Notes: generated by a model from the letters alone, not told the origin. A DNA stretch of 32,502 nt from Terriglobia bacterium (GCA_041483535.1 JBGPFV010000001.1:1-32502), one strand, 5' to 3'. Shown: positions 228 to 32,115, counted from the first letter of the stretch. Made by a program: numbers and translations.

Positions 228-1610
228 GTGACAGACATGAGGCAAACGAGAATTGTGTTGCTGGGAATTCTGCTGGCCGTTCCAGGGTATGGACAGGATC
301 AGCCGCAAACCGCGGCTTCTTCCAAAGTCTACGGACAAGTCCAAGCGCCAGCAGCAACCGCGGACACCAATGCCACGCAAGCGCCACTGGTCCTCACGCT
401 GCAGGATGCCCTTACACGCGCCAAAGCTAACGATCCGCAGTTCAGGGCGGCTCTGACGGAACTAGGGCTGGCTCATCAGGACACCGTGCAAAGCCGCGCT
501 CAACTGCTTCCCAACGTCAACTACAACATGCAGTTCCTCTACACGCAGGGGAACGGTTCTCCTTCCGGACGCTATACGGCCAATAACGGCGTTCACGAGT
601 ACCTAGCGCAGGGAAACGTTCACCAGGCGCTTTCGCCGGGGATGTTAGCGGACTATCGACGCGTCGAAGCCGCCGAGGCTCTGTCGCGGGCCAAGTCGGA
701 GATTGCGACGCGCGGTCTGGTCGTCACCGTGGTGCAGGCTTACTACGGATACGTCGTGGCCGAGCGCAAGTATGCCACCGCCCAGAAGGCGGCTTCGGAA
801 GCGGACCACTTTCTCGGCCTCAGCCAAAAGCTGCAGAACGGCGGCGAGGTCGCGGGTTCCGACGTGATCAAAGCTCAGATTCAGGATCAGCAGCAACAGC
901 GCGCACTGCAGGATGCTCTTCTGGCGATGAACAAGACTCGCCTCGATCTTGCCGTGTTGCTGTTCCCGAATTTCGACCAGAATTTCTCGGTCGTAGATGA
1001 CTTGCGCCTGCCCGACCCGTTGCCCCCTTTCGTCGAAGTGCAGGCGGCTGCAACCAAGAGTAATCCGGAACTTCGGGCTGCGCTTGCCTCTCTGCGGCAA
1101 TCCGACCAGGAAGTGAAAGTCGCGTGGGCGGCCATGCTGCCATCGGTCGGCCTGGATTATTTCTATGGCATCGACGCCAATCAGTTCGCGGTGAACGGTC
1201 CGGCTCCGGACCGGTTTCGCAACTTGGGATACTCGGCCACCGCTACACTACAGTTGCCTATATGGAACTGGGGGGCGGGTTACAGCAAGGTGAAGCAGGC
1301 GGATTTGAGGCGGCGGCAGGCCCATGTCGAGTTGAGCTTCGCGCAACGCCGGCTGCTGGCCGATCTGCGGTCGTTCTATGACGAAACCGAGACCTCGCGC
1401 GCGCAGCTCGAATCGCTAGGTCAAACCGCGGAACTTGCTTCCGACAGTTCACGTTTAACTACTTTGCGCTACCAGGCGGGAGAGGCCACGGTGCTGGAAG
1501 TGGTGGACGCTCAAAATACCCTGACGCTGGCTCGCAATGCGTATGATGATGGTCAGGTTCGTTTCCAGGTCGCCCTCGCGAACCTGCAAACCCTGACCGG
1601 GAGCTTCTAA
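228..1610 (+). CDS. TolC-family outer membrane efflux protein
   Basis: 460-aa ORF with a signal-like N-terminus (RIVLLGILLAVPGYGQ). The opening LTLQDALTRAKANDPQFRAA and two coiled-coil repeats are typical of OEP/TolC. It is the first gene of an OMF-MFP-RND operon. An alternative start is ATG 237. Confidence 0.85.
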   Translation: MTDMRQTRIVLLGILLAVPGYGQDQPQTAASSKVYGQVQAPAATADTNATQAPLVLTLQDALTRAKANDPQFRAALTELGLAHQDTVQSRAQLLPNVNYNMQFLYTQGNGSPSGRYTANNGVHEYLAQGNVHQALSPGMLADYRRVEAAEALSRAKSEIATRGLVVTVVQAYYGYVVAERKYATAQKAASEADHFLGLSQKLQNGGEVAGSDVIKAQIQDQQQQRALQDALLAMNKTRLDLAVLLFPNFDQNFSVVDDLRLPDPLPPFVEVQAAATKSNPELRAALASLRQSDQEVKVAWAAMLPSVGLDYFYGIDANQFAVNGPAPDRFRNLGYSATATLQLPIWNWGAGYSKVKQADLRRRQAHVELSFAQRRLLADLRSFYDETETSRAQLESLGQTAELASDSSRLTTLRYQAGEATVLEVVDAQNTLTLARNAYDDGQVRFQVALANLQTLTGSF

Positions 1611-1613
1611 AGC

Positions 1614-3053
1614 GTGTTTCACATATCGATTTGTGGGGAAGGAGGCCGCACCCTTCAGGGGCTATGGCGGGACCAGAGTTGCTGTGGCCACAGGCAGCAG
1701 CCGAGCTGCGCTCGCCTTGGACGGGCGAGGGCGCCCGTCCCCACACTAGCGCTGGCCTCAATCATTCCTGTTCTTGTGCTGGCGCTGGGCTGCTCCGCGG
1801 GCAAGCAGCCGGAGCCGACGGTCGCGGTTCAGGTGGTTCCGGTCAAGAAGGCGACCATCGAGCAGACGGTGACCTCCGAAGCCATTTTGTTTCCACTGGC
1901 CCAGTCGGCGATTGTTCCGAAGATCAGCGCGCCGGTCAAAGCGTTCTACGTGAATCGCGGCAGCAAGGTTCATGAAGGACAGTTGCTGGCCAAATTGGAA
2001 AGCCGCGACTTGGCTGCCGCTGCCGAGGACAACCAGGGAGCCTACGATCAAGCGCAGGCCGCCTACGCGATCGCCACCGCGTCTACTTTGCCGGAAGAGA
2101 TTCAGAAAGCGCAGGGCGATACTAGGGCGGCGAAGCTGGCTCTGGAGGCCGAACAGAAGCTCTACGACAGTCGTCAAGATCTTTACAAGCAAGGCGCCCT
2201 GCCTCGCAAAGAGCTCGATCAAGCTACCGTCAGTCTCGCGCAGGCACGAACTCAATACGAAATTGCGCAGCACCACCTCGATGCTTTGATGGCGGGAGGC
2301 AAGCAGGAGGAAATCAAGTCTGCCAAGGGACAATTGCAATCGGCCAAAGGCAAGTATCTCGGCGCCGCGGCGCAGTTGAACTACTCGGAAATCCGCAGTC
2401 CCATCAACGGCGTGGTTACCGACCGTCCCTTGTACCCGGGAGAAATGGCTGCTGCGGGAACGCCCCTGCTCACTGTCATGGACACCGGCACGGTGGTGGC
2501 GCGTGCCCACATTCCGCAAGAGCAGGCCGCGTTGCTGAAGGTGGGCGACAAGGCCACGGTCCTTGTTGCTGGCGGTCCAGGCGAAGATGACGCGATCGAA
2601 GGAAAGGTGACCGTCGTCAGCCCGGCGCTTGATCCCAACAGCACGACGGTTGAAGTCTGGGTCCAGGCCAGGAATCCGAAGGAACGATTGCGACCGGGAA
2701 CGAGCGTGCGGATTTCCATGCTGGCGCGCTCGGTGCCGAACGCGGTGGTCATTCCCGCGGCAGCGGTGCTCACCGCTCCGGACGGAACGAGCTATGTGAT
2801 GGTCGTTGTTCCCGAAAATCGGGGCTCCGACAATCGTGCCCACCAGAAGACGGTGAAGACCGGAATCCGGCAGGGCGATCAAGTGCAGATTCTTGATGGC
2901 CTCATGGAAGGCGATCGCGTCGTCGCATCCGGCGCCTATGGCCTGCCCGACAATACCAAGATTCGCGTCGAAGCCGCCACCGAGTCTGACAAGACGGATC
3001 ACCCATCGGACAGGCCATCTGCGGGAAAAGAGACAGAAAAGGATGCCCAGTAG
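1614..3053 (+). CDS. Efflux RND periplasmic adaptor (MFP/HlyD family) lipoprotein
   Basis: 479-aa ORF starting 4 nt after the TolC stop. It has a lipobox (LVLALGCSAGK), a long alpha-hairpin (QAQAAYAIA...LEAEQKLYD...) and a beta-barrel region (YSEIRSPINGVVTDR). The start is uncertain, but no other in-frame ATG/GTG/TTG precedes the lipobox. Confidence 0.85.
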   Translation: MFHISICGEGGRTLQGLWRDQSCCGHRQQPSCARLGRARAPVPTLALASIIPVLVLALGCSAGKQPEPTVAVQVVPVKKATIEQTVTSEAILFPLAQSAIVPKISAPVKAFYVNRGSKVHEGQLLAKLESRDLAAAAEDNQGAYDQAQAAYAIATASTLPEEIQKAQGDTRAAKLALEAEQKLYDSRQDLYKQGALPRKELDQATVSLAQARTQYEIAQHHLDALMAGGKQEEIKSAKGQLQSAKGKYLGAAAQLNYSEIRSPINGVVTDRPLYPGEMAAAGTPLLTVMDTGTVVARAHIPQEQAALLKVGDKATVLVAGGPGEDDAIEGKVTVVSPALDPNSTTVEVWVQARNPKERLRPGTSVRISMLARSVPNAVVIPAAAVLTAPDGTSYVMVVVPENRGSDNRAHQKTVKTGIRQGDQVQILDGLMEGDRVVASGAYGLPDNTKIRVEAATESDKTDHPSDRPSAGKETEKDAQ

Positions 3054-6000
3054 CGCGATGACCGCGACCCAAGGTGAATCCCCTTACTGGTTTGCGCGCC
3101 ACTCCCGCTCCATCCTCGTCTTAATCATCACGCTGGCGCTGGTTGGCATCTACGTCGCGTTCACCATTCCGGTTTCCGTTTTTCCGGACACGAATTTTCC
3201 GCGCATTCTGATTGCTGTCGACAACGGCGTGATGCCCATCGACCAGATGATGGTCACGGTCACGCGCCCGCTCGAAGAAGCAGTCAACAGCGTGCCGGGT
3301 CTGCGGCAGGTCCGCTCCATTACCAGCCGCGGATCGGCCGAAATCGACCTGTTCTTCGACTGGAACGTCGACATGTTCCAGACCTTGCAGTACGTGAACG
3401 CGTTGCTATCCAACGCACAACGCGACCTGCCGGCGAGCGCGAAGGTGGAAGCGCATCGCATGACCTTCGCCAGCTTTCCGATTCTCGGCTATAGCCTGAC
3501 TTCGGACACAGTTCCGCAGACCCAGCTCTGGGAACTTGCCACTTACGAGCTCAAGCCCCGGCTGAACCGCCTGGATGGCGTGGCCCGCGTGATTGTGCAA
3601 GGCGGCCAGGAGCCGGAGTTTCACATCGTGCCCGATCCCGCCAAGCTTTTGCAGGCGAGTGTTACGGTTACCGACCTGCTCGATGCGGTGCGGCGCACCA
3701 ACCTGATTGACTCTCCCGGCCTGCTCGAGCGTAACCACCAGCTCTACCTTGGGCTGATTAGCGGACAGGTGCACGATCCGCAACAGATTGCGGCGACCGT
3801 CGTCAAGACAACCGCCGCCGGTGTGCCGGTGCGGGTGGGCGACGTCGCGAAAGTGGAGGCGGCAGTTCGTCCTCTCTATACCATTGTTTCGGCGAACGGA
3901 AAGCCGGCGGTCCTTTTGAGCATCAACCGCCAGCCGGAAAGCAACACCGTGCAGGTGGCGGAAGAGGCGCACGCGGAAGTCGTGAGCATCCGCAAATCGC
4001 TGCCGCCCGGGGTGGAGATTCATCCTTTTTACGATCAGTCGGAGATCGTTCGGCAATCGATTGCCAGTGTCCGCGACGCCATTCTCATCGGCTTAATCCT
4101 GGCGTCGATTATTCTCGTGATTTTTCTGCGCGACTGGGGCACTTCCATCGTGGCTGGCCTGGTGATCCCGGTAACCATCGCGGTGACGTTCATCGCCCTT
4201 AAGTGGATGGGCGAGAGTTTTAACCTGATGACGCTCGGCGGGCTGGCTGCGGCGGTTGGCCTGGTGATCGATGACGCGATCGTGGTGGTGGAGAACATCG
4301 TGCTGCATCGCGACGCGGGCCAGACGCGGCTGCAGGCCATCCACAGCGCGCTGGGCGAGATCACCATCCCGCTGATCGGCTCGACCATCACCCCGATTGT
4401 TGTGTTCCTTCCGCTTGTGTCCATCACCGGCGTAACCGGCACGTTCTTCCGCGCCCTCGCCGTCACCATGTCGGTCTCGCTGCTCACGTCGCTGGCGCTC
4501 GCGCTCAGTTGGACGCCGGCGCTCAGCCAGTTTCTGATCAAGCGATCCACCGGCGATTCGTCCGACATCCCGGACGGCATCGCGGAGAATGATGAAGACG
4601 CTCTCGACCAGATCGCTCCTGAGCCAGAGGTCGAGTCGATCCGGCGTCTGATGGAAGTGGAAGAAGCTTCACTCAGCGGCTTTTTCCGGAAGGTGATTGC
4701 CTTCCACGAGCGCTGGTTGCGCCGGGCGCTGGAGCGCCCACGCTGGCTGGCCGGCTTCAGCCTGGTTCTGATCGTCATTGCTTTCGTGTGCTACCAGTTC
4801 TCCGGCTCCGACCTGCTGCCGGAGATGGACGAAGGCGGTTTCATTATCGACTACATCATGCCCGCGGGCAGTTCCTTGGCGGAGACCAATCGCGTGATCC
4901 GCCATCTCGAACAAATCCTGCACGGTACTCCCGAGGTCGAGTACACCTCGCGGCGCACGGGCATGCAACTGGGCCTGGCGTCGGTGACCGAGGCCAACAC
5001 GGGCGACATTTCGGTGAAACTCAAGGCCTCCCGCAGCCGCGATATCGAGGACATCATCGCCGAGGTTCGCGCGAAAATCAGGACAGAAGAACCGGCCATT
5101 GACGTGGAATTCGTCCAGGTTCTCCAGGACATGATTAACGATCTGACGGGAGAACCGCAGCCGGTTGAGATCAAGTTGTTTTCGCAGGATGCTTCCGTCA
5201 TCGAGGACTGGGCGCCGAAGGTAGCGGATGCGATCGCCAAAGACAAAGGCGTGGTCGATGTCTTGAACGGAATCGATAACACCATCAGCGGTCCGGCAGT
5301 GATGTTTCAGGTCGACCCCGCCATCGCGGCACGGGCCGGGTTCACTCCCGAAGAAGTTGCGACCGACGCGACTGCCATTCTGGAAGGCGAGCCGTCGACG
5401 ACTCCCGTAGTCACTCATGATCGCACGTACACCGTGCGCGTGCGCTTTCCGGCGGGGAATCGAGCTTCACTCGAGGCCATGCGCGACACGCTGCTGGTCA
5501 GTTCGACGGGCAAAACGGCGACGCTCGGATCGCTGGCCACGCTGACCGAGATTCCCGGACAGACGGAAATCCGGCGCGAGAACCTGCTGCGGAATGTGGT
5601 GGTCTCGGCGCGACTGGAGGGCGTCGACCTGGGCACGGGTGTTGCCAGCGTCAAGAAGAGCGTGGAGCAGTTGCATCTGCCTTCTTCGATTCGGGTGGTA
5701 TACGGCGGAACCTACCAGACGCAACAAAAATCATTCCGCGATCTCATCTTCGTGCTCATCCTGGCGGTGGTGCTCGTCTTCATCGTATTGCTGTTTGAGT
5801 TCCGGACCTTTGCCGCGCCCCTCGCGATTCTTTCGTCGGCCCTGCTTTCGACCTGCGGAGTGTTTCTGGCCCTGTTCATCACCCGCACCACGTTCAACAT
5901 CTCGTCGTTCATGGGGATGATCATGGTGATTGGCATCGTGGCCAAGAACGGTATTCTGCTGCTCGATGCCGAGCAAAAATTCCGCGCCGCCGGACTCTCG

Positions 6001-6237
6001 CTGGAAGAAGCGGTCATTCAAGCAGGGCGCCGCAGGTTGCGGCCGATCGTCATGACCGCGCTCGCCGCGGTAGCGGGAATGCTGCCTCTTGCATTCGCCA
6101 TGGGCGCAGGATCGCAGATGTTGAAGCCTCTAGCGATTGCCGTGATTGGCGGCGTGCTCCTTTCCATGGTTCTGTCGCTGATCATCACTCCCGCGGTCCA
6201 CCTGTTCGCCACCCGGCGCGCGCTGCGAAGTTCCTAG
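3043..6237 (+). CDS. RND efflux permease (AcrB/HAE1-like inner membrane transporter)
   Basis: About 1064 aa. The N-terminus RHSRSILVLIITLALVGIYVAFTIPVSVFPD is typical of RND pumps. The TM4 motif GLVIDDAIVVVENIV is of the HAE1 type. Two large periplasmic loops and 12 hydrophobic segments are present. I place the start at ATG 3043, overlapping the MFP stop by 11 nt, rather than at ORF-track 2893. Confidence 0.9.
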   Translation: MPSSAMTATQGESPYWFARHSRSILVLIITLALVGIYVAFTIPVSVFPDTNFPRILIAVDNGVMPIDQMMVTVTRPLEEAVNSVPGLRQVRSITSRGSAEIDLFFDWNVDMFQTLQYVNALLSNAQRDLPASAKVEAHRMTFASFPILGYSLTSDTVPQTQLWELATYELKPRLNRLDGVARVIVQGGQEPEFHIVPDPAKLLQASVTVTDLLDAVRRTNLIDSPGLLERNHQLYLGLISGQVHDPQQIAATVVKTTAAGVPVRVGDVAKVEAAVRPLYTIVSANGKPAVLLSINRQPESNTVQVAEEAHAEVVSIRKSLPPGVEIHPFYDQSEIVRQSIASVRDAILIGLILASIILVIFLRDWGTSIVAGLVIPVTIAVTFIALKWMGESFNLMTLGGLAAAVGLVIDDAIVVVENIVLHRDAGQTRLQAIHSALGEITIPLIGSTITPIVVFLPLVSITGVTGTFFRALAVTMSVSLLTSLALALSWTPALSQFLIKRSTGDSSDIPDGIAENDEDALDQIAPEPEVESIRRLMEVEEASLSGFFRKVIAFHERWLRRALERPRWLAGFSLVLIVIAFVCYQFSGSDLLPEMDEGGFIIDYIMPAGSSLAETNRVIRHLEQILHGTPEVEYTSRRTGMQLGLASVTEANTGDISVKLKASRSRDIEDIIAEVRAKIRTEEPAIDVEFVQVLQDMINDLTGEPQPVEIKLFSQDASVIEDWAPKVADAIAKDKGVVDVLNGIDNTISGPAVMFQVDPAIAARAGFTPEEVATDATAILEGEPSTTPVVTHDRTYTVRVRFPAGNRASLEAMRDTLLVSSTGKTATLGSLATLTEIPGQTEIRRENLLRNVVVSARLEGVDLGTGVASVKKSVEQLHLPSSIRVVYGGTYQTQQKSFRDLIFVLILAVVLVFIVLLFEFRTFAAPLAILSSALLSTCGVFLALFITRTTFNISSFMGMIMVIGIVAKNGILLLDAEQKFRAAGLSLEEAVIQAGRRRLRPIVMTALAAVAGMLPLAFAMGAGSQMLKPLAIAVIGGVLLSMVLSLIITPAVHLFATRRALRSS

Positions 6238-10030: not shown

Positions 10031-11296
10031 GTGCGCATGAAATTCCTGAGAAGTTGGAAGTTCCGGATCCTGCTCTTTTTCGCCGTCGTAGGACCGGGCT
10101 TCATCACCGCGAATGTTGACAACGATGCCAACGGCATCTTGACGTATTCGCAGGCCGGGGCGCAGTTCGGCTACCTGCTCTTGTGGACGATGATCCCGAC
10201 TACGATCGCGCTGATCGTAGTGCAGGAAATGTGCGCCCGCATGGGAGCGGTCACGGGCAAGGGCCTGAGCGATCTGATCCGGGAAGAATACGGCCTGCGC
10301 ATCACGTTCCTCATGATGCTCGGCATTCTGATTACAAATTTCGGAAACGTCGTGGGCGAGTTTGTCGGCATTGCGGGAAGCATGGAGCTGTTCGGGGTCT
10401 CCAGATACTACTCGGTGCCGATTTGTGCGGTGATCGTTTGGTTGATTGCGGTCAAAGGGCAATACAAGAGCGTGGAGAAGGTCTTCCTGGCAGCCTCGTT
10501 TTTCTATATCACTTACATATTCGCCGGTGTTCTGGCCAAGCCCGCGTGGATTGAGGCGGTTAAGGCCACGATGAAGCCTCCCGGGATGGCGGCCTTCAAG
10601 CACGGACCGTATCTCTACATGGTCATTGGCGTTGTCGGAACTACGATCGCGCCCTGGATGCAGTTCTATTTGCAGTCGTCGATTGTGGAGAAAGGGGTCA
10701 CGCGGCGGCAGTACAAAACCTCGCGGCTCGACGTGATTGTGGGCTGTATCTTCACCGATGTGGTTGCCTGGTTCATCATCGTGGCCTGCGCGGCCACGCT
10801 CTACCTGCATGGGAATCGCGACATTCGCGACGCTGCCGACGCTGCCCAGTCGCTGCGTCCGCTGGCGGGCGACTGGGCGTACATCCTGTTTGCCCTAGGG
10901 CTTTTCAATGCGTCGCTGTTCGCGGCTTCGATTCTGCCGCTTTCGACGGCCTATACGGTCTGTGAAGGATTAGGTTTCGAGTCGGGAGTCGAACGCAAAT
11001 TTTCTGAAGCTCCCGCCTTTTACTGGCTCTATACCGCGCTCATTGTTGCCGGAGCGGCCGTGGTCCTGATCCCCAGGCTTCCGTATATAAAGATCGCGGT
11101 ATTTTCACAGGTGGTCAACGGCGCAGTCTTGCCCTTCGTATTGATCTTCATGTTGCTGCTCATCAACAAGAAGGAACTCATGGGCGAATACGCGAATAAA
11201 CCCATGTTCAACTTCATCGCCTGGGCCACCACCGTGATTATGATTGGGCTCACGGTGGTGTACGTGTACGGGCAGGTGCGTGGCGGAGCCGGGTAG
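10031..11296 (+). CDS. Nramp/SLC11-family transporter with NRMT-type (Nramp-related Mg2+ transporter) binding-site residues
   Basis: 421 aa with about 11 hydrophobic segments. TM1 is GPGFITANVDNDANGILTYSQAGAQFGY, where D-A-N-G replaces the canonical D-P-G-N. TM6 is GTTIAPWMQFYLQSS, which replaces G-A-x-x-M-P-H-N. An alternative start is ATG 10037. Confidence 0.8.
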   Translation: MRMKFLRSWKFRILLFFAVVGPGFITANVDNDANGILTYSQAGAQFGYLLLWTMIPTTIALIVVQEMCARMGAVTGKGLSDLIREEYGLRITFLMMLGILITNFGNVVGEFVGIAGSMELFGVSRYYSVPICAVIVWLIAVKGQYKSVEKVFLAASFFYITYIFAGVLAKPAWIEAVKATMKPPGMAAFKHGPYLYMVIGVVGTTIAPWMQFYLQSSIVEKGVTRRQYKTSRLDVIVGCIFTDVVAWFIIVACAATLYLHGNRDIRDAADAAQSLRPLAGDWAYILFALGLFNASLFAASILPLSTAYTVCEGLGFESGVERKFSEAPAFYWLYTALIVAGAAVVLIPRLPYIKIAVFSQVVNGAVLPFVLIFMLLLINKKELMGEYANKPMFNFIAWATTVIMIGLTVVYVYGQVRGGAG

Positions 11297-18728: not shown

Positions 18729-18836
18729 GATCGGGTCATCGGGTGATCGGGCCATCTAAAGTCAACAGCATCGCTCCGATCTAGCGATGCGGGCGTTTTC
18801 AGATCACCCGATGACCCAATGACCCGATCACCCGAT
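18729..18836. repeat. Heptad-type GATCGGG/TCATCGGG inverted repeat element enclosing a small hairpin
   Basis: 16-bp perfect inverted repeat GGGTCATCGGGTGATC (18733-18748) / GATCACCCGATGACCC (18802-18817). An inner 8-bp stem GCATCGCT-N7-AGCGATGC lies at 18768-18790. The right arm continues as tandem GACCCGAT/CACCCGAT units to 18836. Confidence 0.8.
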
Positions 18837-18873
18837 TTCTTCGAAACCTTGTACACTCCTTCTTCACCCTCCG

Positions 18874-20478
18874 ATGCCCCCGGCGCAGCCCAGTTCGCGA
18901 GCTTTGCATTTTCTGCTGCCTTCGGTCCGCGACGTCATTTTCATTCTTTTGTTTTGGGCGGTGCTGGCGGGGCCTTTATCGAATCGGCCGCTGGCGGACT
19001 CGGATATTGGATGGCATATCCGAACCGGCGAACGGATTCTGGCGATGCGCACGATTCCTCGTACCGACCCGTTTTCTTCCACCATGCAGGGCCAGCCATG
19101 GTTTGCCTGGGAATGGTTGTACGACCTGGCGCTCGGAATCCTGCACCGGACTTGCGGATTGAATGGAGTGGTTTGGTTGTGCGCCTTGTTCGTCGCTGCG
19201 ATTTTCGCATTCCTGTTTTCGCGGCTGCTGCGGCGCGGAACTGGGTTGCTGCTGGCGGTCGTGCTCATGTTGCTGGCGGAGGCCGCTTCGACCATTCATC
19301 TCTACGCGCGGCCGCATATTGTGAGCTGGCTTTTTTCTCTGCTTTGGTTTGTTGCATTGGAAAAATGGGATCGATGGGAAGGTTGGGAGCACGGGCAGCC
19401 GCCGCGCTGGATACGCTGGTTCTTTCCCGTCTCGATGTTGCTCTGGGTGAATCTGCATGGCGGATGGCCCTTCGGAATCGCTCTGCTCGGAATCTACACC
19501 TTCGCCGCATTCGTCGAGAGCTGGCGCACGCACGATGTGTTTGCCGCAATTCGCGCCGCACATCGGGCCCGCGCCATGGCCGAGGTTTGGGCGGCCTCGG
19601 CGGTGGCGACGCTGGTGAATCCGTTTGGCTGGCGGTTGCACGCGCACATCTATCGCTATCTGGGCGATCGTTACCTGATGAACCGGATCGACGAGTTTCG
19701 CTCGCCGGATTTTCACGGATGGGCCGAGCGCTGTTTTGCGGGAATCCTGGTGCTGGTGCTGATCGCTTTCGCCGGCAGTTACAGAAAGCTGCGGCTCAGC
19801 CACCTGCTGGTCGTGCTGGTGGCGGCGTACGCGGGATTCTATTCGTCTCGCAATCTGCCCGTTTCGTCGATGCTGCTGGTGCTGGTGGCGGGGCCCATCC
19901 TGTGGGAGAACTTCGTTGCGCTGGCGGATAAGCCGGGTGCCTGGCCCTGGATGCGCAATGGCGCCGCCAGAATTTCACAGTTTTCCGATCGCATGGGCGC
20001 GCAGGAGATGCAACTTCTCGGGCACCTATGGCCGGTCGTCGCTGTGTTCCTTGCATTCGCGATCTGTCTGCAAGGAGGATGGCTCGGCTCGCGGCAGTTG
20101 ATTGATGCGCAATTTGATTCCAAGAAAATTCCGGTCGCGGCGGTGACTTTCCTGCAGCAAGAATCCCAAGGGAAGCAGCCAAGCACGGACCCGGTTTTCT
20201 CGACCGATGCCTGGAGCGGCTATCTCATTTACCGCATGTATCCCGAGCGGAAGGTCGTGGTCGATGACCGTCACGATCTCTACGGTTCGGGCCGGATTCG
20301 CCAGTACCTGATCCTGACCCAGGCCGAGCCGGGATGGCAGAACGTGCTGAAAGAGTGGCAGATTCGGACGGCGCTCTTGCCCGCTGGATCGACGCTCGCC
20401 AACCTGCTCCGCGAACTTCCGCAAGATTGGCGGGTGGGGTACGAAGACAACGTTGCGGTGGTGTTTGAGAGGCGTTAG
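18874..20478 (+). CDS. Large polytopic membrane protein of unknown function (possibly GT-C-like glycosyltransferase)
   Basis: 534 aa. About 10 or more hydrophobic helices in the first ~400 aa, then a soluble C-terminal domain. The N-terminal motif DSDIGWHIRTGERIL...DPFSST...WFAWEWLYD recurs in uncharacterized bacterial membrane proteins. The functional call is weak. Confidence 0.6.
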   Translation: MPPAQPSSRALHFLLPSVRDVIFILLFWAVLAGPLSNRPLADSDIGWHIRTGERILAMRTIPRTDPFSSTMQGQPWFAWEWLYDLALGILHRTCGLNGVVWLCALFVAAIFAFLFSRLLRRGTGLLLAVVLMLLAEAASTIHLYARPHIVSWLFSLLWFVALEKWDRWEGWEHGQPPRWIRWFFPVSMLLWVNLHGGWPFGIALLGIYTFAAFVESWRTHDVFAAIRAAHRARAMAEVWAASAVATLVNPFGWRLHAHIYRYLGDRYLMNRIDEFRSPDFHGWAERCFAGILVLVLIAFAGSYRKLRLSHLLVVLVAAYAGFYSSRNLPVSSMLLVLVAGPILWENFVALADKPGAWPWMRNGAARISQFSDRMGAQEMQLLGHLWPVVAVFLAFAICLQGGWLGSRQLIDAQFDSKKIPVAAVTFLQQESQGKQPSTDPVFSTDAWSGYLIYRMYPERKVVVDDRHDLYGSGRIRQYLILTQAEPGWQNVLKEWQIRTALLPAGSTLANLLRELPQDWRVGYEDNVAVVFERR

Positions 20479-23451: not shown

Positions 23452-23692
23452 GTACCGGCTGAAAATCTCAGGACCTTGAAGAGTGCCGGCCTCCCCACTC
23501 CGAATTCCCTGTCACTCTCTGCAACCTGAGCGCGTCCGCATCATCTGATGTAGTTGAGTTTGGCGCCAGGCGCCTGGGAAGTGCTACCTTTGGGAGCCCG
23601 CGCCTATCCCCACGCGGACTTCGGCGAGAGTGAGAATGTATGCGGATCGCAAGAATACGTGGGTGTGTCGAGAGATTTCGGGAGAGCTGCCG

Positions 23693-25327
23693 ATGAAGGC
23701 GCAGTGTTTGCCGTTCCAGCAGATTCCGCACAGCACACCTCTCTTCCTCGACTATCTTTCCTACACTCCTTCGGTTCGCGATTTTTATCCCCGTTCACCG
23801 ATTGTTTCCGAGTGGGTCAAAGACGAATCGCAGCGGGTTGTTTACGACGCAGCGCGCCGCAGCAGGGTGAGCGCCATTCTTGAGCGGCAGAATCGCGCGT
23901 GGGGCGCTTCTCCAAAGACGCTGGCCAATATTGAACGGCTCAAGCGAGGAGCCCTGGCGGCGGTTACGGGACAGCAGGTTGGTCTTTTCGGCGGGCCGCT
24001 GTTTTCGATTTTCAAAGCATTGACGGCGGTCAAACTGGCGGAGCAGGCGACGGCGACGGGAGTGGAATGCGTCCCGATCTTCTGGCTGGCGACCGAAGAT
24101 CACGATTTGGCAGAGGTCAACCATGTGGCGCTGCTCTCCGAGCAGGGCCTTCCGGAACCATTCGCGGCGGAAAGCCGGGCATTTGAAAGCAACGCCGTGG
24201 ACGATGCGCCCGTGGGAACCGTCAAGTTCGGGCCGGAGATTGAGCCGGTGGTCGAGCGCGCCGCTGCACTGTTGGGAGATTCCGAGGTCACGACGTGGCT
24301 TCGCCAGGCGTATCGTCCGGGAGAAACGCTGGGTAGTGCGTTTGCCCTGCTGTTTGCACGCCTGTTTGCGGATTGGGGAGTCATCCTGCTGGATCCGGCG
24401 GACAAAGGTTTTCACGATCTCGCAAAACCACTGTTCCGCGCGGCGATCGAACGGGCTTCCGAACTTGATGAAGCACTGCTGGCGCGCGGCAAAGCGCTGG
24501 AGGCGGCGGGATATCACCAGCAGGTGAAAGTGACCTCGGCGACCACGCTGCTTTTTGAAGTGAAGAATGGTGCGCGCACCGTGGTGCGGCGCAGGAATAA
24601 TGGCGGCAATGGCAGTGAGTACGCCGTCGGTGAGGAGCGGATCTCTCAGGGAGAGCTGCTCGATCGGATTGAACAGGCTCCGGAGAAGTTCAACCCGAAT
24701 GTGTTGCTTCGTCCCGTGGTACAGGATTACCTGCTGCCGACGCTCGTTTATACCGGCGGAGCGGCCGAAGTCGCGTACTTCGCGCAGGTGGCCGTAGTCT
24801 ACGAGAAACTGCTGGGACGAGTGACACCGATTCTGCCGCGGTTTTCGGCAACGTTGGTCGAAGCCAAGCCACAGCGCATTCTGACCCGCTACGAACTGGG
24901 ACTACCCGATTTATTCCAAGGCCCGGAAAAAGTTCGCGAAGCAATTGCGGCTCGTTCGCTGCCACCGGATTTGCAGGAGCGCTTTGCGGAAGCCTACTCG
25001 AGTGTGGAGCGATCGATGACGGCGGTTCGTGAGTCGGTGGGCAAGCTGGATTCAACGCTGATCGATACCGCTGAAGGCACCCAGGCCAGCATGCGGCATC
25101 AAATCGACCGTCTGCAGGCGCGGGTATCACGGGCGGAGGGGCTACGGAATGATGTCATCACGCGGCACGCGGATGCCTTGAGCCACGCGCTATTTCCGCA
25201 CAAGGCCCTCCAGGAACGCGAGGTTGCAGGAGTCAGCTTTGTGGCGCGCTATGGGCCGGAACTGCTCGCGAAGCTCTATCAGACGATCCATCCCGATTGC
25301 CCCGATCACCAGCTAATTGCGCTGTAG
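23693..25327 (+). CDS. bshC: Bacillithiol biosynthesis cysteine-adding enzyme BshC
   Basis: About 544 aa from ATG 23693, preceded by GGGAGAG. TPLFLDYL..., VTGQQVGLFGGPLFSIFKALTAVKLAEQ, NVLLRPVVQDYLLPTLVYTGGAAEVAYFAQ, and a C-terminal coiled coil are characteristic of BshC. Confidence 0.85.
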   Translation: MKAQCLPFQQIPHSTPLFLDYLSYTPSVRDFYPRSPIVSEWVKDESQRVVYDAARRSRVSAILERQNRAWGASPKTLANIERLKRGALAAVTGQQVGLFGGPLFSIFKALTAVKLAEQATATGVECVPIFWLATEDHDLAEVNHVALLSEQGLPEPFAAESRAFESNAVDDAPVGTVKFGPEIEPVVERAAALLGDSEVTTWLRQAYRPGETLGSAFALLFARLFADWGVILLDPADKGFHDLAKPLFRAAIERASELDEALLARGKALEAAGYHQQVKVTSATTLLFEVKNGARTVVRRRNNGGNGSEYAVGEERISQGELLDRIEQAPEKFNPNVLLRPVVQDYLLPTLVYTGGAAEVAYFAQVAVVYEKLLGRVTPILPRFSATLVEAKPQRILTRYELGLPDLFQGPEKVREAIAARSLPPDLQERFAEAYSSVERSMTAVRESVGKLDSTLIDTAEGTQASMRHQIDRLQARVSRAEGLRNDVITRHADALSHALFPHKALQEREVAGVSFVARYGPELLAKLYQTIHPDCPDHQLIAL

Positions 25328-28476: not shown

Positions 28477-28986
28477 TCACGGTCCCGGCAAAGCTCCTAT
28501 GACCTCATCCAGCGGCGCGCGGTCGAGCTGGTTCGCGCCAAGATAGATGTAGCGGACTATGCCGCTGCGATCCTTCTCGCTACGACCTATGACAACCGTA
28601 GCCGGGTGCGCGATGTTGAGCGCGTCGGTGCCGAGCGCGTGATGGAGCCCGTAGGCTTTGGTCACGGCCCGATCCTCATCGAGCAGGAAGACGCTGGAGA
28701 GGGGATGTTTCTCCAGAAATTTCCCCGGCCTCCACACGCCGTCCCGCTTTTCGGCGGCAAGAAACGCCAACTGCGCTCCCGCTGCTTCAATTTCCGGCTT
28801 CCGGGACTCGAACTGAGTCATGCGCTTCACGCAGTTCGGTCACCAGGTGCCGCGCAGAAACTCGAGAATCAGCGCACCTTGCGCCAGCAAACCACTGAGA
28901 GTAAAGGTACCTTCACGGTTGGCCGCGGTTAGGGAAAAGTCCGGGGCGCGCGAGCCTACCTCCAAGGTTTCGGTGCGGTTCTTCAT
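28477..28986 (-). CDS. AhpC/TSA (PRX_like2) thiol-disulfide oxidoreductase with an in-frame TGA at the first redox Cys: candidate selenoprotein (W-U-P-N-C), or a nonsense pseudogene
   Basis: Hand translation from ATG 28986: MKNRTETLEVGSRAPDFSLTAANREGTFTLSGLLAQGALILEFLRGTW[TGA 28842-28840]PNCVKRMTQFESRKPEIEAAGAQLAFLAAEK... This continues in frame into ORF-track 28477..28830. Both halves carry redoxin-family motifs, and the TGA is the only interruption. Confidence 0.6.
28809..28838 (-). promoter_or_regulatory. Hairpin immediately 3' of the in-frame UGA (candidate bacterial SECIS element)
   Basis: On the mRNA: UGA-C-[CGAACUG]-CGUG-AAGCG-CAUG-ACU-[CAGUUCG]. There is a perfect 7-bp lower stem, a possible 4-bp upper stem (C:G, G.U, U:A, G:C) and a 5-nt G-containing apical loop. 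The loop lies closer to the UGA (about 12 nt) than in the classical fdhF-type model. Confidence 0.35.
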
Positions 28987-30497: not shown

Positions 30498-30555
30498 CTT
30501 TGCATCACCTAACCGCGGTATGGGGAGCAAATGGCCGAGCGTGGGAGGCGTAGCC

Positions 30556-31479
30556 ATGAAAGTCATCCTCAGCAGGAAGGGGAGTGACAGCGGGTTGAAG
30601 TCTGGCAGGATGGCCAGTCCAATTCTCCCCTGCGGTTGTCTCTGCTCTGTCCCGATCCCGTACGAACGCGGTGTGCGCTACTCCGACATTCGATTTGGCA
30701 AGCGAACGCTGCGGGAGATTTGCCACGGATTCAACCCCGAGTGGGAGGACGGGTTCGCACACCTTGATCCGGATCTTCGATTCGAATCTTTGGCTCGGAA
30801 TGTACCGCCAAAGGTATGGAGGCCAGCCTTCGGACAATCTGGATTCTCAGAGGGTCACCTCTGTAAGCAAGGTGTGGGTCAAAAAGGTGACCTGTTCATT
30901 TTTTTTGGGTGGTTCCGAAGAACCACGAAAGAGAATGGCAAGCTAAGGTTCGATCCGAAGGACAATCACGGACGACATGTCATCTATGGTTGGCTCGAAG
31001 TCGGAGAAGTTTTTCCAGTCGATGGGCGGCAACTACCCGACCAGTTGCGTTTCCTGTCAATTCACCCACACGTTCGTTTCCCGGAGATAGTCGGTCATCC
31101 TAACCGAGTTTACGTGGGTTCTGATTCGGGCCTGAAAGCCGGGCTGTTTGGAGTTCAGTCGGATGATCTTGTACTGACAAAGCCGGGGTCTGATGTACGT
31201 TCGCAATGGCAATTGCCTGGAAAGGTTTTCGATTCAGTGTTTCGTCAAACCCGCCTTTCACAAACCGGTCTTTCATATCATGGCAACCGTGAACGATGGA
31301 CAAAGGAAGTTGGGGGGATTGGCCTCAGGGCGGTGAGCAGAGGGCAGGAGTTTGTTGTAGATGGTCAACTGCATCCGAGTGTTTATCAGCACTTTGCCGC
31401 TCTGATCAAGTCCGCTTCGAAGGCACGCAGAACGTGCCTGCACGATTGTTGGCGGTCGGACGAGACCACCTTGACTTAG
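30556..31479 (+). CDS. Hypothetical protein; N-terminus resembles the Nmad3 family (putative nucleotide-modification-associated domain 3)
   Basis: ATG 30556 is preceded by GGGAGG at 30543-30548. MKVILSRKGSDSGLKSGRMASPILPCGCLCSVPIPYERGVRYSDIRF... resembles, from memory, the MK(I/V)ILSRKGFDS...SPI(F/L)P...SLPIP start of Nmad3-family proteins. GC looks lower than in the neighbours. The family call needs an HMM search. Confidence 0.45.
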   Translation: MKVILSRKGSDSGLKSGRMASPILPCGCLCSVPIPYERGVRYSDIRFGKRTLREICHGFNPEWEDGFAHLDPDLRFESLARNVPPKVWRPAFGQSGFSEGHLCKQGVGQKGDLFIFFGWFRRTTKENGKLRFDPKDNHGRHVIYGWLEVGEVFPVDGRQLPDQLRFLSIHPHVRFPEIVGHPNRVYVGSDSGLKAGLFGVQSDDLVLTKPGSDVRSQWQLPGKVFDSVFRQTRLSQTGLSYHGNRERWTKEVGGIGLRAVSRGQEFVVDGQLHPSVYQHFAALIKSASKARRTCLHDCWRSDETTLT

Positions 31480-31504: not shown

Positions 31505-31735
31505 ATGGAAGTCAATATCCACGAGGCCAAGACTCACCTGTCTCGCTTGCTGGAGCGGGTTGCCATGGGAGAAGAAGTCATCATCGCCAAGGCCGGGACA
31601 CCCGTGGCCAAGTTGGTGCCACTAAAGGTTCGTCCGAAGAGGCGGGTGCTCGGATCGGCGAAAGGGGAGTTCACCGTGCCCGAGGATTTCAACGATCCGC
31701 TGCCCAAGGAGATCGAGGATCTCTTCTACGAATGA
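31505..31735 (+). CDS. Type II antitoxin, Phd/YefM family
   Basis: 76 aa. MEVNIHEAKTHLSRLLERVAMGEEVIIAKAGTPVAKLVP is the classic Phd/YefM N-terminal fold. The acidic C-terminal tail and the 4-nt overlap (ATGA) with the toxin gene also fit. Confidence 0.9.
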   Translation: MEVNIHEAKTHLSRLLERVAMGEEVIIAKAGTPVAKLVPLKVRPKRRVLGSAKGEFTVPEDFNDPLPKEIEDLFYE

Positions 31736-32115
31736 AGGCGCTTCTCGATACGCACACGTTCTTGTGGGCAATCGCAGAGGAAGGAAAGCTCTCTCGCCGG
31801 GCTCGGCAGATCTATACCGGTTCGAATGATCTTTGGCTGAGTGTCGCCAGCGTGTGGGAGATTTTGATTAAGGTGCAAGCCGGCAAACTTCCTTTGCCCG
31901 AGCCCTCAGGACCGTATCTGGTCAAGAAGCTAGCCAAGGACCGGATCGGAGTTCTACCCATCACCTTGGAACACGTGCTCAGGACTGAATCCTTGCCACT
32001 CCACCACCGTGACCCGTTCGACCGCTTGCTCATTGCGCAGAGTATCGAAGAGGGATGGCCCATCATTACCGCCGATCCCTGGTTCGCGCACTATCCTGTG
32101 GATGCCATCTGGTAA
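31732..32115 (+). CDS. vapC: Type II toxin, PIN-domain VapC family
   Basis: 127 aa. LLDTHTFLW (first acidic residue), SVASVWEILIK, and HHRDPFDRLLIAQSIEEGWPIITAD are PIN-domain catalytic motifs. Confidence 0.9.
   Translation: MKALLDTHTFLWAIAEEGKLSRRARQIYTGSNDLWLSVASVWEILIKVQAGKLPLPEPSGPYLVKKLAKDRIGVLPITLEHVLRTESLPLHHRDPFDRLLIAQSIEEGWPIITADPWFAHYPVDAIW

Follow-up and report, generated by a model that had tools for sequence, protein, structure and literature searches.

A redoxin reading frame interrupted by TGA

The window analysed here is a whole 32.5-kb contig (32,502 nucleotides (nt)) from a Terriglobia bacterium, and the subject of this study is a gene on its minus strand, read from 28986 to 28477, that appears to encode a redoxin with selenocysteine (Sec) in its active site. 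From the ATG at 28986, 48 sense codons (MKNRTETLEVGSRAPDFSL...EFLRGTW) run to an in-frame TGA at codon 49, and 120 further sense codons (PNCVKRM...) lead to a second TGA that ends the gene (Table 1). A mechanical list of open reading frames (ORFs) contained only the distal 117 amino acids (aa; 28477-28830). When the internal TGA was read as Cys, the product matched the Pfam families Redoxin (PF08534; E 1.3e-18, 67.7 bits) and AhpC-TSA (PF00578; E 8.6e-17, 61.7 bits), both above the gathering cut-off. Each match covered residues 10-162 as one domain running across the TGA, far beyond what chance would give. With the TGA taken as Sec, the redox motif of the window gene is of the UxxC type with Sec first, W-U-P-N-C. 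An earlier prediction made from the sequence alone (the original prediction) had given this start, the 48 and 120 codons, the position of the TGA and the distal 117-aa ORF, and all agreed with the sequence and its translation. A screen of the window for long frames with one TGA inside yielded 60 candidates and no second selenoprotein gene, as only the redoxin combined a redox-type context with a real gene. A Cys-rich TGA context at 10117 was rejected; it sits in an alternate frame of an Nramp gene.

Close matches in a search space of ~5.8 billion proteins were of two kinds. Full-length proteins of 165-180 aa shared 56-79% identity with the query, and many clusters of 108-125 aa (80-88% identity) covered its last two thirds and started MTQFES. 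The motif W-C-P-N-C was present in 14/14 full-length homologues aligned. Orthologous DNA was examined at 77 loci of species-representative genomes, nearly all of them metagenome-assembled genomes (MAGs) that belong to Acidobacteriaceae/Terriglobales and were recovered from peat, bog and soil. Codon 49 could be located in 71 of these loci and was TGA in 69, at identities to the window ranging from 89% down to 57%; only L043 and L070 carried TGC. Metagenome contigs were scanned with a profile built from Cys forms only, and among the best loci with a locatable codon (n = 79), 76 had TGA at codon 49 despite the Cys-form query. Comparison with homologues at this codon, proposed as a check in the original prediction, gave 143 TGA forms and Cys in the remaining 13 of 156 complete-frame orthologues, which came from Terriglobales/Acidobacteriaceae genomes and from soil metagenomes.

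The orthologues begin MKNRTETLE, 48 codons ahead of the TGA, and no stop was found within the 46 codons upstream of it in any orthologue. Entropies at codon positions 1, 2 and 3 were 0.61, 0.46 and 1.18 in the 40 codons upstream of the TGA, compared with 0.44, 0.37 and 1.08 downstream; the halves on both sides of the TGA are under purifying selection. The true stop of the gene is itself TGA in 54/71 orthologues; therefore the codon has not been reassigned genome-wide, and reassignment was ruled out. Cys-form and Sec-form genes share the gene order enolase, redoxin, GH57 and are therefore orthologous. Public gene calls for this family consist of 48-aa 'peroxiredoxin/hypothetical' N-terminal pieces and 101-129-aa C-terminal 'redoxin family protein' pieces (P0128-P0140, P0141-P0154). 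Two Sec-form orthologues have active sites other than U-P-N-C, namely U-R-S-C in L031 (10139-10204) and U-S-N-C in L040 (10139-10204), with the downstream hairpins intact. Frameshifts, N or premature stops near or after the TGA were seen in L064, L066, L068, L071 and L072. Most of these loci are from MFD and bog MAGs, and the probable cause is faulty assembly, not decay.

The nearest solved structure by sequence was that of Aeropyrum pernix BCP/PrxQ (2cx3; E 1.7e-9), followed by ResA. In the alignment with 2cx3, Cys52 corresponds to the peroxidatic Cys and Sec49 to the Thr/Ser of the P-x-x-x-T/S-x-x-C motif, and the Pro of the motif is replaced by Arg; the motif of typical PrxQ/BCP proteins is thus absent from the window protein. 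The Arg of an invariant L-D-E-D-R...Y-G segment is kept. An AlphaFold (AF2) model of a Cys-form orthologue (P0008; predicted local distance difference test score (pLDDT) 88) has the CxxC at the N-terminal end of a helix, and Foldseek ranked BcpB (5epf), Bcp4 (3hjp) and then DsbE/ResA as its closest structures (template modelling (TM) score ~0.8). No signal peptide or membrane anchor was identified, and the N-terminus, MKNRTETLEVGSRAPDF, has no hydrophobic stretch. No NCBIfam model reached its cut-off, with ResA NF002854 scoring 37 bits against 170 and the SelL-related NF040769 scoring 35.1 bits against 120. From the sequence, fold and missing-anchor results, the protein is predicted to be a cytoplasmic peroxiredoxin (Prx)-like oxidoreductase of the CxxC type with a UxxC centre, intermediate between PrxQ/BCP and ResA-type proteins.

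RNA structure downstream of the TGA

Third-position variation was measured codon by codon in 67 TGA orthologues. Synonymous sites vary freely across the gene and freeze at five codons past the TGA (+3 TGC, +6 CGC, +8 ACT/GCT, +9 CAG and +11 GAG), while codons +1, +2, +4, +5, +10 and +12 remain variable. This pattern indicates a constraint at the RNA level at approximately nt 10-40 after the UGA. The RNAalifold consensus for the region consisted of two adjacent small hairpins (28833-28804), here termed H1 and H2. Structure tests were run on 135 distinct 66-nt Sec-form segments (alignment A4) by counting paired cells and comparing them with shuffled controls. H1 and H2 together had 97.0% of cells paired, a level reached by 0/500 shuffles, and 41 double-change cells were observed where 0.1 were expected. 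One H2 pair (31-43) was AU in 48 sequences, GU in 46, GC in 40 and other in 1, and no shuffle (0/500) reached this covariation. A series of A-U, G-U and G-C in which G-U is tolerated and A-C avoided is the pattern expected for RNA pairing. All of the frozen synonymous sites fall on paired positions of H1 or H2 or on the loop G, and the variable sites are unpaired or vary compatibly. In H1 the Arg codon is limited to CGC/CGU, both of which pair with G; the frozen synonymous sites of H2 are those of CAG, GAG and NCU.

Bacterial Sec insertion sequence (SECIS) elements have been modelled as an apical loop of 3-9 nt on a stem of 4-16 bp, with a G at loop position 1 or 2 and most often G or U after it, a UGA-to-loop distance of 16-37 nt and a minimum free energy (MFE) of -7.5 kcal/mol or lower (PMC13188914). 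H2 has this geometry, with a 5-nt loop, a stem of 5-6 bp and a loop that starts 26 nt after the A of the UGA. In the window copy the 5-bp stem occupies 28819-28805 and the apical loop 28814-28810, with the invariant loop G at 28813. Across the 135 sequences the loop reads A (119) or G (16), then G (135), U (104) or G (31), U (134) and any nucleotide. The stretch containing both hairpins had an energy of -10.3 kcal/mol in the window and of -7.5 kcal/mol or lower in 98.5% of the sequences. When the first 12 nt after the UGA were held single-stranded, H2 was the MFE structure in the window copy and in 53/70 orthologues. As a control, the Escherichia coli fdhF UGA was located at codon 140, and its GGUC loop spans nt 22-25 when counted from the U of this UGA.

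The original prediction had proposed a different structure, a long hairpin that starts 2 nt after the UGA, as the SECIS. This hairpin is present at 28838-28809, and its CGAACUG/CAGUUCG stem and CGUG/CAUG upper stem lie within the MFE fold of the window copy (-19.9 kcal/mol). The core of the hairpin also belongs to the MFE fold of 35/70 orthologues, and its AACUG/CAGUU pairs can form in most sequences. The fold is not exceptional (z = -1.46; 16/200 shuffles were equally stable), and on its own it proves nothing. A first pair count gave 93.0% pairing, which fell to 88.5% across the 135 sequences, no better than in shuffles. Four of its pairs were broken repeatedly (12-39 in 59 sequences, 21-27 in 54, 14-37 in 31 and 20-28 in 20). 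No excess covariation was found in this set, and the expectation that covariation would preserve the hairpin was not borne out. Its AAGCG loop has no G at either of its first two positions and lies 12 nt from the UGA, outside the published 16-37 nt (PMC13188914). Furthermore, its 5' arm should be unwound in a ribosome that holds the UGA in the A site. An extension of H2 by CGC..GCG with an AU bulge was also tried; it was 91.1% paired, and its three outer pairs could not form in 10-20 of the 70 sequences. On these pair counts the long hairpin and the extended H2 were dropped in favour of H1 plus H2. It is unlikely that the long hairpin is the functional SECIS or part of it; the comparative evidence suggests that H2 is probably the SECIS.

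Table 1. Features of the interrupted redoxin gene and of the RNA around its internal TGA
Feature	Position	Strand	Remarks
Putative UxxC redoxin (Prx-like) coding sequence, Sec-UGA included	28477-28986	minus	169 codons plus TGA stop 28479-28477
In-frame TGA, presumed Sec codon, residue 49	28840-28842	minus	First position of W-U-P-N-C; Cys in homologues
TGC, partner Cys52 of UxxC	28831-28833	minus	Also 5' arm of H1; TGC in 135/135 Sec forms
Long hairpin of the original prediction	28809-28838	minus	7-bp and 4-bp stems, loop AAGCG; MFE of window copy; mutually exclusive with H2; unconserved as a structure
H1, UGCGU-GAA-GCGCA	28821-28833	minus	5 bp, 3-nt loop, nt 10-22 from U of UGA; 97.6% paired (n = 135)
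H2, proposed SECIS core, (U)GACUC-AGUUC-GAGUC(C)	28804-28820	minus	96.4% paired (n = 135)

The Cys forms provide a view of the element where Sec is not encoded. Among 12 distinct Cys-form DNA sequences, 8 keep only 2-4 of the 6 H2 pairs and carry GAA, CAA, TGT, CGA, CGG or AGA at sites that are frozen in 135/135 Sec forms. Three Cys forms, L043 (10139-10204), L109 (=L161) and L167 (1001-1507), have an intact H2 (6/6 pairs) after their TGC/TGT. Their aa identity to Sec forms is 86-91%, compared with 66-80% to any other distinct Cys form. The intact hairpins of these three resemble SECIS remnants left behind when Sec was recently converted to Cys, a situation that has been described (PMC1794560). 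A rough neighbour-joining tree with Fitch parsimony gave at least 7 Sec/Cys switches with Sec at the root, on a crude rooting. In several Cys-form loci the redoxin is closely followed by a conserved gene that encodes 209-223 aa and matches no Pfam family (L160 10560-11189, L167 1606-2235, L161 1564-2199 and L163 1489-2160); in L160 and L167 this gene sits between the redoxin and GH57. In the window the redoxin stop and the GH57 stop are 30 nt apart, leaving no space for such a gene.

Decoding of the TGA and competing explanations

Taken together, the TGA, the two-sided frame and the RNA element, all conserved in many species of Terriglobales, and the Cys of homologues give strong comparative support to the proposal that Sec replaces the first Cys of a UxxC redoxin, and we consider it highly likely that this is a real selenoprotein gene in which UGA-49 is decoded as Sec. 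The full explanation that we favour, which is very probably right, has as its product a thioredoxin-fold oxidoreductase of ~169 aa with a U-P-N-C centre and includes the following decoding steps. A ribosome arriving at the UGA would unwind the first 10-12 nt downstream and so remove the competing long hairpin. H2 (28820-28804) would be left standing and would expose G-U in its loop (G-G in certain relatives), ~26 nt past the UGA; the adjacent H1 may stack on it. SelB with GTP and Sec-tRNA(Sec) would then bind the H2 loop and deliver Sec in competition with RF2. In the finished protein, Sec49 at the N-terminus of the first helix would act as the nucleophile on a peroxide or disulfide substrate; the selenenylsulfide that it forms with Cys52 would be reduced by a system of the thioredoxin type or one based on a low-molecular-weight thiol. 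A BshC-type bacillithiol-biosynthesis gene (23630-25327, plus strand; Rossmann-like_BshC, E 1.9e-82) lies 3 kb from the redoxin gene and hints at bacillithiol as the low-molecular-weight thiol of the organism, and possibly as the reductant of the redoxin.

The two mutually exclusive folds could also be read as a switch operated by the ribosome. In the free mRNA, the UGA and the SelB loop would both be concealed by the long hairpin (28838-28809, lengthened so that the UGA is paired too); the ribosome would melt the hairpin's 5' arm, and the freed 3' arm would snap into H2 and show the G-U loop to SelB. Were this so, SelB recruitment would be timed to the arrival of the ribosome, in a SECIS architecture unlike the coaxial fdhF model. 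We regard such a switch as unlikely.

Use of Sec has been recorded in this phylum. A 2006 census attributed 3 selenoprotein families and 4 selenoproteins to Acidobacteria (PMC1794560). Nearly all of the genome loci examined above are from Acidobacteriaceae/Terriglobales MAGs. We take Occallatibacter riparius to be a member of Acidobacteriaceae as well. Strain DSM 25168 of this species has been listed under Acidobacteriota as Sec-utilising, with three known selenoprotein genes (PMC12013277).

Several observations weigh against decoding as Sec or against the role given to H2. The 32.5-kb contig holds no sel genes or tRNA genes; the original prediction had noted the lack of sel genes, and the search of the whole contig bore it out. 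Likewise, tblastn with E. coli SelA, SelB and SelD found no match in the window or in the 10-kb flanks of relatives, and ARAGORN found no tRNA-Sec in the window and 60 loci. The missing sel matches are uninformative because these flanks cover only ~20 kb per genome. H2 alone has an energy of -5.7 kcal/mol in the window and -6.4 kcal/mol on average, short of the published -7.5 kcal/mol (PMC13188914), and without constraints the window copy and 35/70 orthologues have the competing long hairpin as their MFE structure. The sole strongly covarying pair sits at first codon positions (Thr/Ala and Ser/Pro/Leu), where protein-level or phylogenetic co-variation may also be a cause. No Rfam family matched at gathering or permissive thresholds, where only chance-level matches (E > 1) were returned.

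Other accounts of the TGA fare worse. A base-call error, or the pseudogene of the original prediction's caveat in which one TGC/TGT-to-TGA change inactivated an ordinary CxxC redoxin of this contig, needs only a single substitution and suits the habit of gene callers of taking TGA as a stop. This account did not survive comparison: 143 orthologues from independent assemblies, with identities as low as 57%, carry TGA at the same codon, the two halves are in frame under purifying selection and the RNA element downstream is conserved, so that its probability is negligible. Production of two proteins, with a 48-aa peptide ending at the TGA and a restart at an ATG or GTG a few codons on giving the protein of 112-117 aa found in databases, draws on the presence of an ATG (Met56) after the TGA, the start used by most gene callers. 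However, the entire active site and the first beta-strands would be missing from the C-terminal product, and both the Pfam domain and the structural model require the two halves. The frame and spacing between the halves are invariant, the Cys forms are single proteins, and L045, L048, L101, L103, L134 and L144 have Leu, Thr or Ile instead of Met56, which makes separate products very improbable.

Recoding of the UGA as something other than Sec, for instance if a hairpin promoted read-through with a near-cognate tRNA for Trp, Cys or Arg, or by another route, would fit the lack of visible Sec machinery in the window and 10-kb flanks. It would also fit the UGA-C context, which terminates poorly. 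Against it, a Trp or Arg at residue 49 would destroy the redox centre, and Sec and Cys regularly replace one another at sites of this kind, the catalytic Cys of a CxxC (PMC1794560, PMC2398784). In both its G-[U/G] and its spacing from the UGA, the loop fits the SelB-type consensus (PMC13188914), and Sec use is documented in the phylum, one cultured species included (PMC1794560, PMC12013277). We judge such recoding improbable, and decoding as Sec remains the reading that we prefer.

The remaining genes of the window include an Nmad3 (nucleotide-modification-associated domain 3) protein gene (30520-31479, plus strand; E 2.7e-57), followed at 31505-32115 (plus strand) by a small ORF that overlaps a PIN-domain gene; the latter two resemble a toxin-antitoxin pair of the VapBC type. 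At 18874-20478 (plus strand), a 534-aa ORF without any match in Pfam overlaps a 370-aa ORF (18819-19931) in another frame. An ordinary resistance-nodulation-division (RND) efflux operon (228-6237, plus strand) encodes an outer-membrane factor, an HlyD-type adaptor and an AcrB-type pump, and Nramp, MgtE-like, NDH-2 and NfeD genes are found elsewhere; neither these nor the RND operon relate to selenium.

Significance and relation to known systems

Essentially all public records seen contain the redoxin gene in split or shortened form, and its scores stay below the cut-off of every NCBIfam model; therefore the proteomes of a dominant soil and peat lineage lack the active site of this enzyme. The findings imply that many uncultured Terriglobales decode Sec and rely on selenium for a redox enzyme. 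The Sec/Cys switches and remnant SECIS hairpins would form a compact system for studying Sec-to-Cys replacement. The locus also illustrates that a thermodynamically obvious hairpin beside a UGA need not be the SECIS, as frozen synonymous sites and covariation chose another structure. What sets the case apart is modest, namely an orthologue group with a majority of Sec forms, its carriers among soil and peat Terriglobales, and a putative SECIS of two small hairpins that competes with a more stable fold.

UxxC selenoproteins with PF00578/PF08534 domains form established families, among them the Prx-like thiol:disulfide oxidoreductase, Prx-like 1 and Prx-like 3, as well as the Redoxin family proteins (PMC2398784, PMC13188914). 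The window gene resembles them in its Pfam domains, the Sec-first UxxC, a proposed SECIS placed within the coding sequence just downstream and the existence of Cys homologues. This likeness refers to the stated features of these families, whose published representatives are WP_010940744.1 and HEU0032618.1. The proportion of Sec forms is different. In the marine Global Ocean Sampling (GOS) survey, Prx-like 1 had 225 Sec and 2,740 Cys forms and Prx-like 3 had 68 Sec and 2,608 Cys forms, so that Sec forms made up 2-8% (PMC2398784), whereas they are the majority (143/156) in the Terriglobales group. Acidobacteria are unmentioned in the main text of a review (PMC13188914) and of the BSepDB paper (PMC13326102). 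HEU0032618.1 has the accession type of Third Party Annotation (TPA) soil MAGs, and the Terriglobales homologues found here carry HEX, HEY and HYW accessions; the orthologue group may already be in a selenoprotein catalogue. Thus, the type of protein is known, and the gene is a new or newly recognised member of it.

Among other redox proteins, PrxQ/BCP (A. pernix 2cx3 and Mycobacterium tuberculosis BcpB 5epf) gave the best sequence and fold matches and shares the peroxidatic Cys and the Arg of D-x-x-R...YG. It differs at the active site, where P-x-x-x-T/S-x-x-C is replaced by R-G-T-W-U-P-N-C, with the Pro lost and Sec at the Thr/Ser, giving a CxxC-type centre like the W-C-P-x-C of ResA. The ResA/TlpA/DsbE proteins have the G-T-W-C-P-x-C active-site motif and the thioredoxin fold, but they are membrane-anchored and extracytoplasmic, whereas the window protein has no hydrophobic N-terminus and scores far below the cut-off. 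At the RNA level, the proposed element is like the fdhF SECIS in being a small apical hairpin within the coding sequence, with a G and then U or G in its loop, some two dozen nt past the UGA, and the fdhF loop sequence GGUC occurs exactly in the H2 of some relatives. The loop G of fdhF lies at nt 22-23 from the U of the UGA, compared with nt 30 in the redoxin gene. In addition, the redoxin element has no bulged U, its lower part is the separate hairpin H1 instead of a coaxial stem reaching to the UGA, and it is accompanied by a competing hairpin.

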